A program made the position numbers and the translations under genes. This document shows, in pieces, positions 21,034-58,367 of a stretch of DNA of 64,000 bases. The notes beneath the pieces were generated by a model. The model searched no databases and had not been told where the DNA came from. It saw nothing but the letters and a program-made list of their open reading frames with translations. The stretch lies in assembly GCA_951406725.2 (NCBI GenBank), contig OX597820.1, positions 50,530,001-50,594,000 on the forward strand, in the 5' to 3' direction. The stretch is from Octopus vulgaris. Lineage: Eukaryota. Positions within the stretch are counted from its first letter, which is position 1, and the number at the start of each line of letters is the position of its first letter.

Positions 21034-22978
21034 GTCAAGACGAAAAGAGCGATTCGATTGTAAGATAATTTATTGGTTGAACGATATTTCAACAGTAAGT
21101 CTGTCTTCGTCAAGTTCAAGACAAGAAGTGCAAAAAATACAAAATCATAAAAATTTGAACGTAAAATATGAACGAGAGCAACCAGCGTCCATGCGTTGAT
21201 GGAATGACATCATCAGTTTTTGAGTTACAATTTATAACAGACGAAAAGAGAAAAACAGAAAAAAAAAACAGAAAAAGAAGACGACAGAAAGATTTCCTCC
21301 AATGCGCCAAATTTGCAGCGGATATGAATTTTGCACGGCCAAAATTTCGGAATAGCTGGATGGCCTTCTACTCCCCTTCGCAAAACGATCAAGTTCCTAT
21401 ATTCAGGATACCTTTGATCTTGTATCTAAAATCAATAACTCTTTTAAACACCGAGGCCGTATCCAGAACTGATTTTGGTAACCATAACTGTTTCTTCCTT
21501 ATATCTCAATATTGAGCACAATGGAGTAGAAGAGTGCATGGATGCCTTCGAAAAGCGGTAAAACAAAAGTATTCCATCAACTTTCTCTTTAGATTATTGA
21601 GGTTTGTGTTAGAAAGATTTTACCACCAGCCGAAGTGTTGCGCCATGGGAACCCTCATGGCAGTTAATTTCGCTAATGTCTTTCATGATGAAATTCGATA
21701 CACGGTTACTGAAGACATTCAATTCCCTTCATAGTCATGAACCAATACGCTGGTTACGGTTCATTGATGACACATGTTTTGTCTGGGAAGGGCCACAAGA
21801 TAGTTTAATGGACTTCTTGCATTCCAGTGACTGTTGTGCTAGAAACTATGGCTTTAAGTCCAACATAAAATTTACGTCTAGTTTTTCAAAAACTAGCGTT
21901 AGATGTTTGGACACAAAAGTTTTCTGGAGGCCGAGTTGTTTTGCAAGCCACGTCATCCCAGATTCATCTCCACCGCCGCTCCGATCATCCACATCCTCTT
22001 ATTCAGTCAAATCCGAAATCCCTATTTTTAAAGATAAAACGGATTTGTACTGATAGGGGATTACTGGAAACATGCAAATACTTTTGTATATCATTATTTC
22101 AAACGCGGTTACAGTGAACCATGATTAAAGAAAATAGCAAATGAAATGGCTATGATTAGCAAAGATAGTCAATCCTTCGGCCATAATTTTAGTAAACACA
22201 ATAAAATAGATGATATAATTCCTTTAGCTGGCACCGACATTTAGCTGGCATTTCAAAAGTGTTGCATGAAAGTTACCAGCATGTGGCGAAAATTATCTTC
22301 GTTTCAAACAGATATTTCTTCAGCCGAATATTGTAGCCTTTAGACGGAATAAGAATATAAGAGAATTATCGACCTCTACATCTGACATAAAGAAAACGAA
22401 CATTGGAGTATCTGCACGTTGTATCTTAAAGAATAGCCGCAAGATAAGTAAGCCTTGTTCCTTGAACAACAAGAGTGAAGTGAATTCCATCAGAAACCCC
22501 ACCATTTGGTGTAAGCCGCAGAATGCACGAAACACAATTTATGTTGGTTGTACAATGGAACAATTAAACAAAAGGTTTAATGGGCACAGATTCTACGCCA
22601 GGCACAATAACAGTAGTTCGATAGAACTTACTGAACATTTCATTTCAGGCGGCTGCAATTTTGAAGAAGACTTGAAAGTGAATATTCTCAGAAAATATTT
22701 TGAATCTGCATCACTTTCACTTCTCAGAATGTATGAGGAGAAATATGTTCGCGGGTTATTAATATGACGCCCTGGAGGAATGAATAAGATGACAGGAGAA
22801 TATCATCAAAGTTATACAAAACTCTTTGGTTAAATATTCTTCTTTCTCTTTTTTTTTTCATTCTTCTTTTTTTTTCTGTTGAAATGTCGTTCAACTAATA
22901 AAATATCTTACAATCGAATTGCACTCTTCGACTTGACTATTTACATTTGTGAAGAGTTACGTCAATCCTTTTTAAAAT
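21033..22978 (+). mobile_element. Penelope-like element (RT plus GIY-YIG) with inverted pLTRs
   Basis: CAMGTLMAVNFAN, WLRFIDDTCFVW (ORF 21676-22053), NTIYVGCT...KRFNGHR...YEEKY (ORF 22462-22767). 63-bp inverted repeats at 21033-21095 and 22876-22938. Confidence 0.9.
21077..21119 (-). ncRNA. Minimal type I hammerhead ribozyme motif in inverted PLE pLTR
   Basis: Minus strand: TTGAAC-TTGACGAA-GACAG-ACTTA-CTGTT-GAAA-TATC-GTTCAA. 6-bp helix I, 5-bp helix II, AUC triplet. Core position 3 is U facing G8, so activity is uncertain. Confidence 0.65.
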
Positions 22979-32983: not shown

Positions 32984-33129
32984 CAAGGGCACTACAATAC
33001 CTGTACATTTTTCAAGGGCACTACCATAACCGTACGTGTTTCAAGGACACTACAATACCCGTTCATGCTTCAAGAGCACTACAATACCCGTGCATGTTTC
33101 AAGGGCACTACAATACCCGTACATGTTTC
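32984..33129 (+). repeat. 29-bp minisatellite, 5 copies
   Basis: Consensus CAAGGGCACTACAATACCCGTACATGTTT starting at 32984, 33013, 33042, 33071 and 33100. Confidence 0.92.
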
Positions 33130-40651: not shown

Positions 40652-40698
<47 letters not shown>

Positions 40699-40748
40699 TA
40701 TATAATATATATATATACAATATATGTATATATATATATATATAAATA

Positions 40749-40821
<73 letters not shown>

Positions 40822-40905
40822 AAGGGTGAAAAGGAACACACGAGTTGATATATATGAAAAAACAAGTAAAAAATAGAAAATGCTAAAATAATTTTATAGT
40901 GAACA

Positions 40906-40949
40906 TTTCAGTACCGGTTTCGGTCATTTTGAGACCTTTTCAACTGTAA
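40906..40949 (-). ncRNA. Minimal type I hammerhead ribozyme (left arm)
   Basis: Exact reverse complement of 41337-41380. Confidence 0.8.
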
Positions 40950-41336
40950 CGATTAAATAATTAAATTTAGAAAAATTAGAAGAAAAGTTTTTTTAAAAGA
41001 ATATTTCTATAGTAGTGTTCAGATTTAAGTGGCATTCTGCCTTTCTCGACTCCTTGTTTGCACTTGTGTGTTCGAGGTAGTTGTGAGTTCTTGGTAGGGT
41101 AGTAGAGGGAAGGCTGGTGAGGAAAGGGGGTGGGCACTCCCAGATTCTCCCACCCCCCTTTCCTCACCAGCCTTCCCTCTACTACCCTACCAAGAACTCA
41201 CAACTACCTCGAACACACAAGTGCAAACAAGGGAGTCAGAGAAAGGCAGAATGCCACTTAAATCTGAACACTACTATAGAAATATTCTTTTAAAAAAACT
41301 TTTCTTCTAATTTTTCTAAATTTAATTATTTAATCG

Positions 41337-41380
41337 TTACAGTTGAAAAGGTCTCAAAATGACCGAAACCGGTACTGAAA
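41337..41380 (+). ncRNA. Minimal type I hammerhead ribozyme (right arm)
   Basis: TTACAG-TTGAAAA-GGTC-TCAAAAT-GACC-GAAA-CCGG-TA-CTGAAA: U3-A8 core, 4-bp helix II, loopless palindromic helix III, GUA triplet. Predicted cut after 41374. Confidence 0.8.
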
Positions 41381-41426
41381 TGTTCACTATAAAATTATTT
41401 TAGCATTTTCTATTTTTTACTTGTTT

Positions 41427-41477
<51 letters not shown>

Positions 41478-57078: not shown

Positions 57079-58367
57079 TTAGATAGGAAACTAAGTTCCC
57101 ACGGTATTTTAAAATTAATTTTTTTTTAAGGTTTAATAAAAAATAACAACTAATTAATCAACCCTTGTTGTTTACAACTTCTTCCTAACATTCAACAAGA
57201 TTTTCAATACCTTGTTGGTAGAAATCACTCGATTTCGACTCGAAAAATTGATCCAACCAAGCTCTCAATTCTCCATCAGTATTGAACGAAAATTCCGCGC
57301 ATAGCATCTGAAAGAGATCAAAAGATGTAGAAATACAGTTTGTGCCAAATCAGGAGAATACGGTGTGACAGCATTTCCCAGCCATACGTTTGAATGGCTT
57401 ACTTGGTCATATTGGCAATATGAGGGCGGGAGTTGTCGTGCAGCAGAAGAACTCCATGCTGACGATTAGGTCTTTTTCTTGAATAGCCGTGTTGAGTCTT
57501 TCCATCTGTTGAACATAGAACCCCGATTTGACCGTTTGGTTCCGTTCAAACATTTCGTAATGGATAATCCCTTCCTAGTCTCACCATACGCACAACATCA
57601 GTTTAGGCGGATGAAGATCTTGTTTCACGCGCGGTGCCGCTTGTTTAACGGGTCTAAACCAGTCCTTACTTTGCTTCATATTGATATACAGGCACCATTT
57701 TTCGTCGCCAGTAATAATTCGGTAAAGAAATCGATGCTTGTGTCCATGGGTTGAGCCATGACGAGAAAGCAAACCAACGGAGATAGTGGCTTGTTGATTT
57801 TGTTATCATTTAAAGCATGCGGAACTAAATGCTCCATACCTCTGAACCTTTCTCATCGAGTGAAGATGCTTCTCTATAGCAGTGTGGGGGCATTCCATTT
57901 TCTCTGCCAGTTCCCTTATCGTTTGACGAGAATTTTTGTGCAAAAGTTGGTTTAATCGCTCTTCAACGAGCTCAACTGCTCGGCCGAAACGAGGTGCATC
58001 TTTGAGGTTAAACTTTCCATTTTTGAACTTGGCATACCAATTCCGAGCGGTTCTTTGAGCTATGGCACCCTCTGCATATACAGCACGAATGTCACGAGCA
58101 GCTTTTGCGGCCTTAGAACCTTGATTAAAAACAAAAAGAAGGAGGTGTCGAAAATGCTCGTTTTTCTTAACTTGACATTCCATTTTAATGATCTGAAAAT
58201 AAACAAAAATTAACTAAAATTAACTAGAAAAAAAAAAAAGATTCCAAAATGATTCGAAAATAGAATTCTCCAAAAAAGGTAGATTCCAAAATTTAAAAAC
58301 GCAATAACTTCCAAAATTAAAAAAAAAAAACAACAAAAAAACGGTGGGAACTTAGTTGCCAACCCAA
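57079..58367 (-). mobile_element. Full-length mariner element with transposase pseudogene
   Basis: ORF 57806-58183 MECQVKKNEHFRH...DAPRFGR; ORF 57581-57772 IITGDEKWCLY...KLMLCVW. TIRs TTAGATAGGAAACTAAGTTCCCAC and GTGGGAACTTAGTTGCCAACCCAA with TA on both sides. Confidence 0.93.

Follow-up and report, generated by a model that had tools for sequence, protein, structure and literature searches.

A hammerhead-bearing palindrome in Octopus vulgaris as a probable head-to-head insertion of two truncated Penelope-like element 3' ends

A 610-base palindrome with a hammerhead ribozyme motif on each strand raises the question of whether it is a mobile hairpin in its own right, a remnant of a larger element or an artefact, and of how its two halves came to face each other. 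It lies in a 64,000-nt stretch of the Octopus vulgaris genome (contig OX597820.1, positions 50,530,001 to 50,594,000, forward strand), referred to here as the window, and all positions without a locus name are window positions. A first-pass annotation had described near-perfect arms in (TA)n without a credible open reading frame, and this description holds. The arms, at 40856-41134 (minus strand) and 41149-41430 (plus strand), mirror each other as reverse complements, differing by three 1-nt indels and by no substitution; the (TA)n flanks were measured at 40657-40822 (interrupted) and 41431-41474; and within the palindrome no ATG-started frame exceeds 19 aa and no stop-free stretch exceeds 73 aa. 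One indel falls in a C5/C6 run that is variable across the element family described below; the other two, both deletions, are private to the left arm. The 14 nt between the arms had been taken for a separate spacer but are the element's own upstream sequence, as the right arm starts at 41132 and shares a GGG with the left arm. A 30-nt tail (40818-40847) is present on the left arm only, which makes the element asymmetric. The features are as follows, with the basis of each assignment in parentheses.

40657..40817, no strand: left (TA)n target microsatellite, interrupted (repeat scan)
40818..40855, minus strand: PLE "tail", consisting of ATATATAT plus 30 unique nt (match to L052:2322-2359)
40856..41134, minus strand: left arm, a 5'-truncated pLTR made up of the element's last ~280 nt (comparison with L052)
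40909..40946, minus strand: minimal type I hammerhead motif with a U3-A8 core, predicted cut between 40912 and 40911 (descriptor)
41132..41134, no strand: GGG microhomology common to both arms at the inversion junction (junction unique in the genome)
41132..41430, plus strand: right arm, the last ~298 nt of the element, without a tail and including the 14-nt unpaired "spacer" at 41135-41148 (comparison with L052)
41340..41377, plus strand: minimal type I hammerhead motif, predicted cut after 41374 (descriptor)
41431..41474, no strand: right (TA)n target microsatellite (repeat scan)

The arm is almost certainly the 3' end (pLTR) of a young, abundant and autonomous Penelope-like element (PLE). 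The first-pass annotation had proposed aligning one arm to the genome and looking for an autonomous RT/GIY-YIG PLE with the same pLTR, and both searches succeeded. The right arm gave 1,534 candidates in the genome (G000), and 42 of the 43 matches listed are 99-100% identical; the stretch 41149-41430 is 100% identical to eight other full-length matches, and a hammerhead 34-mer has 1,798 exact copies in the genome vs 0 for controls. Elsewhere, a 784-aa frame upstream of the same arm contains an RT domain (PF00078, 33.8 bits vs a cut-off of 29.6) together with a GIY-YIG domain at the C terminus (21.1 bits, slightly below the Pfam cut-off of 22.6; E = 0.00038). A homology search gave 503 homologues at E ≤ 1e-30 among 7,996 candidates, with PF01541 in many of the 120 listed. 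Recently active Penelope families have been reported in an octopus (PMC13282606).

Based on locus L052, the layout is an inverted partial copy, pLTR, tail, ORF1, ORF2, pLTR and (TA)n, with a unit of 4,394 nt in which ORF2 is broken. Locus L142 (G000:C2:45342700-45352600) has one unit whose frames are both open, ORF1 with 411 aa and ORF2 with 776 aa past the overlap. Full units ~4.4 kb apart form tandem arrays in L142 and at G000:C9:10675745-10684627, and pLTRs from partial tandems, both direct and inverted, occur in L052, L128 and L142. In near-full copies, the tail sits after the 5' pLTR and continues towards ORF1; the genome contains 881 exact pLTR-end/tail junctions and 40 exact internal tail-to-ORF1 junctions. 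Between its two end points the tail measures 38 nt, which fits the optional PLE tail of 30-40 nt.

ORF1 (L052:2389-3621) overlaps the RT-EN frame (L052:3561-5914) at a T TTT TTA heptamer in the ORF1 register, as it also does in L142, L049 and L032, and none of the 10 loci containing this site shows a change in it (L048 and L052 are the same copy). The overlap and the conserved heptamer suggest a putative programmed -1 frameshift, and such frameshifts occur in PLEs (Craig 2021, Fig. 1 legend, PMC8557442). Because no stable structure was predicted in the 80 nt downstream of the slippery site (-1.8 kcal/mol), this reading has no pseudoknot support. We note three other features of the window: a frame at 22270-22767 (plus strand) that resembles a decayed GIY-YIG endonuclease of another PLE family, with no Pfam match and a weak match to the octopus parent family (E = 0.085); a Mariner (Mos1-type) transposase HTH fragment at 57809-58213 (minus strand; PF17906, E = 4e-18); and five copies of a 29-nt tandem repeat at 32984-33129.

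The first-pass annotation had left two readings, namely a PLE insertion without coding sequence, of which two inverted pLTR ends are left, and a non-autonomous ribozyme-hairpin family. The first is supported, the arm being the parent's 3' end. The second, in which the palindrome belongs to a hairpin or retrozyme-like family moving as a 610-nt unit, draws on the number of short palindromes. Among the first 100 hammerhead matches listed (contig C1), 44 form 22 divergent pairs 189-5,098 nt apart, and 7 of these 22 are less than 600 nt apart; scaled to all 1,798 matches, this gives a rough estimate of ~400 inverted insertions, ~125 of them short. In addition, L004, L060 and L062 are similar in size to the window palindrome. 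However, the junctions of these three loci differ from that of the window, whose junction 32-mer has one exact occurrence in the 2.8-Gb genome. Fold points vary from copy to copy, from <100 bases to >4 kb, and the sizes of inverted insertions form a continuum up to full length. A spacer and junction shared across copies, which the earlier annotation had named as the mark of a family, was thus not what we found, nor did we find the many copies with an identical internal junction that characterize MITE-like or fold-back families. Non-LTR retrozymes are defined by tandem monomers (10.64898/2026.07.22.740005), each with a type I hammerhead; here, the arms are inverted rather than in tandem. These data make a hairpin family moving as a unit extremely unlikely. 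A separate gapped-palindrome pattern, which allowed a gap of 8-20 nt vs ~31 nt in the window and therefore could not match the window's own site, had two matches (L053 and L054).

The earlier claim of one hammerhead per strand is borne out at the level of the motif. A minimal type I descriptor matched only 41343-41374 (plus strand) and 40943-40912 (minus strand) in the 64-kb window, compared to an average of 0.17 matches per shuffled window (30 shuffles) and a match in 1 of 2,000 shuffled arms. The order of the motif is CAG, the core UUGAAAA, helix II GGUC/GACC (4 bp), GAAA, a palindromic ACCGGU helix III, the cut triplet GUA and CUG; it has a conserved core with the 3-8 base pair, helices I and II, and the palindromic helix III. 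Rfam gave no match at the gathering score; the HH9 family matched weakly (19.7 bits vs 52; E = 0.053). Matches to miRNA families at the E-value level were rejected, as all were below the gathering score and reflect the perfect hairpin. One family member, L100 (G000:C13:524776-524806), shows the canonical C3-G8 core with the surrounding motif retained, which amounts to a double compensatory change seen in one copy; its protein is 98.9% identical over 190 aa, and it is the sole family copy found by the C3-G8 pattern. The other seven of the eight matches to this pattern are not similar to the element. Loci L095, L096, L097, L101 and L102 contain hammerhead-like motifs that combine a C3-G8 core with ACCGGT in DNA unrelated to the family; L095/L096 and L101/L102 are similar pairs. 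The active fold is predicted to be unfavorable as a monomer (+0.4 kcal/mol) and favorable as a dimer formed via ACCGGU (-21.7 kcal/mol), and the hammerheads are predicted to need a dimer for cleavage. Minimal hammerheads of this sort are reported to cleave poorly alone (PMC4209133), and hammerhead cleavage is reported to be dispensable for insertion of an anole PLE in vitro (PMC11167929). We infer that the hammerheads are passengers of the pLTR.

Across the family, inverted insertions consist of two 3'-end copies placed head to head in (TA)n, with end points fixed 38 nt apart, an AT run after each and short or no joining homology. Exactly one arm carries the tail in 57 of the 58 readable inverted insertions. 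In the first sample, made up of the 22 C1 pairs and 12 others (the window and loci similar to its right arm), 33 of 34 pairs have a single tail; the remaining pair (L014) is cut off by the locus end. The second sample consisted of 40 loci fetched around tail matches, taken from the first 100 of 881 and chosen by having a tail; an inverted partner is present in 25 of these loci and lacks a tail in 24. The sole inverted insertion with tails on both arms is L105:449-864. Set aside were L014, L125 (wrong side), L115 and L142 (tandems with the other end unseen) and 12 tailed copies without a partner within ~5 kb. If the arms carried tails independently, the probability of at least 57 one-tail pairs among 58 would be 2e-16 even at a tail rate of one half, a value to be read with the second sample being conditioned on one tail. 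Among unpaired copies, 3 of 20 consecutive ones have a tail. A hidden short inverted tail, looked for in tailless single copies, was found in 0 of 20 consecutive singles and in 1 of 10 others (L038). In samples partly selected for an intact motif, the 5' ends of copies are widely spread; L050 stops at the hammerhead edge, but clustering at that edge was not evident.

The single tail also bears on whether the palindrome is a fold-back artefact of long-read sequencing or assembly. The two private 1-nt deletions of the left arm, near 41047-41052, resemble unpolished read errors, and public contigs carry the family letters there. Twenty public sequencing runs, under five organism codes, contain at least half of the sampled words, and none of those listed is on record as RNA. 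In the contigs of four public runs, no listed piece spans the insertion, which says nothing about expression or about absence of the insertion; because no listed contig bridges the junction, as an artefact would also predict, the locus is known from the assembly alone. Against an artefact, the flanks are not mirrored, the unpaired center is genuine element sequence, and just one of the arms bears the tail, as in the other one-tail pairs. We consider this explanation scarcely credible.

How, then, were two 3' ends joined? The window palindrome is very probably a single non-coding head-to-head insertion of two 5'-truncated PLE 3' ends in (TA)n, which two target-primed reverse transcriptions, one on each DNA strand, likely produced. 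The GIY-YIG nuclease would cut both strands of the (TA)n target; one target 3' end would prime at the AU run found where the pLTR ends, and its counterpart 38 nt downstream, at a second AU run; each cDNA would stop after ~280-300 nt, and the two would be joined head to head through GGG/CCC. The anole PLE protein is reported to cut and extend both strands of AT-rich DNA in vitro and is predicted to be a dimer, and two RT start sites bounding its tail have been shown in vitro (PMC11167929).

Two further properties of the pairs concern the relation between the arms. First, arms within one locus have private or subfamily variants in common: in the older loci L060, L061, L063, L066, L067, L068 and L072, divergence is 0-1% between the two arms of a locus, compared to medians of 2.6-6.5% against other loci. 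Second, arms of near-equal length (within 40 nt) are enriched, with 7 of 33 pairs vs 1.9 by permutation in the first sample (p = 0.0007), which includes the window and L004, both picked by similarity, and 10 of 24 vs 4.1 in the second (p = 0.001). L059, with a secondary insertion, was kept among the 33 and is not near-symmetric by either parsing. In a separate locus, L064, a perfect palindrome is centered on a (TA) run and perhaps reflects two insertions or a template jump.

The one-tail rule, the shared variants and the near-equal arms together suggest coupled priming from two start sites, and we regard two coupled priming events as likely. Against this, the anole PLE is reported to prime at a site without target homology and with start sites alike on both strands (PMC11167929), and L105 is inverted yet has two tails. 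More tentatively, one RNA may be copied twice, with an asymmetric RT-endonuclease dimer using the pLTR end to prime one cut strand and the tail end to prime the second. If true, such double copying would explain the one-tail rule, the arm-shared variants and the excess of near-equal arms together; an asymmetric dimer carrying two sibling RNAs, or conversion between the arms, would suit the data equally, and gene conversion could likewise account for the shared variants.

A different route to near-equal arms with common private variants is snap-back, in which one cDNA folds on itself, or an antisense RNA self-primes as proposed in PMC3846280, and the RT copies back. Both properties are in agreement with this route, and the window's longer cDNA would have CCC at its end, with a GGG 14 nt away. 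However, the longer arm of the window lacks the tail, and snap-back copying from it could therefore not supply one. A length difference of >40 nt favors the tailless arm in 16 of 33 and 9 of 24 pairs and the tailed arm in 10 of 33 and 5 of 24. Snap-back is therefore unlikely, and we retain priming on both target strands as the preferred explanation. What is new here is the count of the one-tail rule, the arm-shared variants and the excess of near-equal arms, the architecture itself having been described for PLEs. The literature searched turned up neither a count of tails for each inverted insertion nor a proposal that one RNA is copied twice, although papers behind subscriptions may contain either. 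The several hundred estimated inverted copies are a ready dataset for a step listed as unresolved in PMC8557442.

The first-pass annotation had also proposed that read-through RNA folds into a hairpin that sequesters its own ribozyme. This part stands as a prediction: the RNA is predicted to form one long duplex (-490 kcal/mol) in which the hammerheads would be buried, as would also apply to sister insertions estimated to number in the hundreds. That the host uses this hairpin, as an ADAR substrate or as a source of siRNAs restraining the family, would be compatible with the preferred origin, and siRNAs are reported to have matched Penelope inverted regions in transgenic Drosophila (PMC3681739). 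Still, the insertion is very young and by estimate one of hundreds, the A>G differences listed in one possibly-RNA run are also present in DNA runs, and no host exon was found among 100 window frames of 75 aa or more, a weak test. Even with the stable predicted duplex in its favor, we consider host use very improbable.

The window copy is dead on arrival, and the locus is ordinary transposon debris: a real but truncated, inverted PLE insertion. Its parent family is young and abundant and has at least one copy (L142) with both frames open; it therefore lends itself to tests of how tandem and inverted PLE insertions arise. Moreover, several hundred near-perfect inverted repeats in a cephalopod host are candidate dsRNA sources for editing and RNAi.

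In L1 twin priming, both target strands prime and the products are joined through microhomology, with an upstream, non-duplicated segment inverted. The octopus palindrome would share the priming from both strands and has a microhomology joint as well; in contrast, the same 3' end is copied twice. Like Neptune-type PLEs, the parent element has an RT followed by a C-terminal GIY-YIG domain and a (TA)n target. Its CX4CxxC linker before GIY-YIG, with a long spacer, resembles the Neptune and not the Nematis rows of the Craig 2021 supplement, a linker comparison made by eye on four rows (two Neptune, two Nematis); the Neptune clade is reported to be paraphyletic (PMC8557442). Unlike in Neptune-type PLEs, a separate 411-aa ORF1 overlaps ORF2 at T TTT TTA.

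The hammerheads resemble the minimal type I hammerheads of metazoan PLEs (Cervera and de la Pena 2014, PMC4209133) in their position in the pLTR near the 3' end, the palindromic helix III, G10.1-C11.1 and the U3-A8 variant, and that paper reports hammerhead pairs on opposite strands 100-700 bp apart, as in the octopus palindrome. They differ from those described in the available text in having a helix II of 4 bp and no extra base between A9 and G10.1, and the motif is known here from its sequence. The anole Poseidon element PAc (Frangieh et al. 2024, PMC11167929) similarly has two end points bounding a tail and an AT-rich target; however, the octopus end points are each followed by an AT run matching the target, whereas PAc is reported to prime without homology. 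The closest architecture is that of EN+ PLE insertions (Craig et al. 2021, PMC8557442, Fig. 2; Arkhipova et al. 2013, PMC3846280), with head-to-head pLTRs, a 30-40-nt tail at one end, a microsatellite target, heavy 5' truncation and partial tandems. Compared with the insertions presented in the available parts of these papers, both halves of the window copy are reduced to the pLTR, and where these papers describe the one-sided tail as occurring "often" or "optionally," the octopus family has it in 57 of 58 counted insertions.
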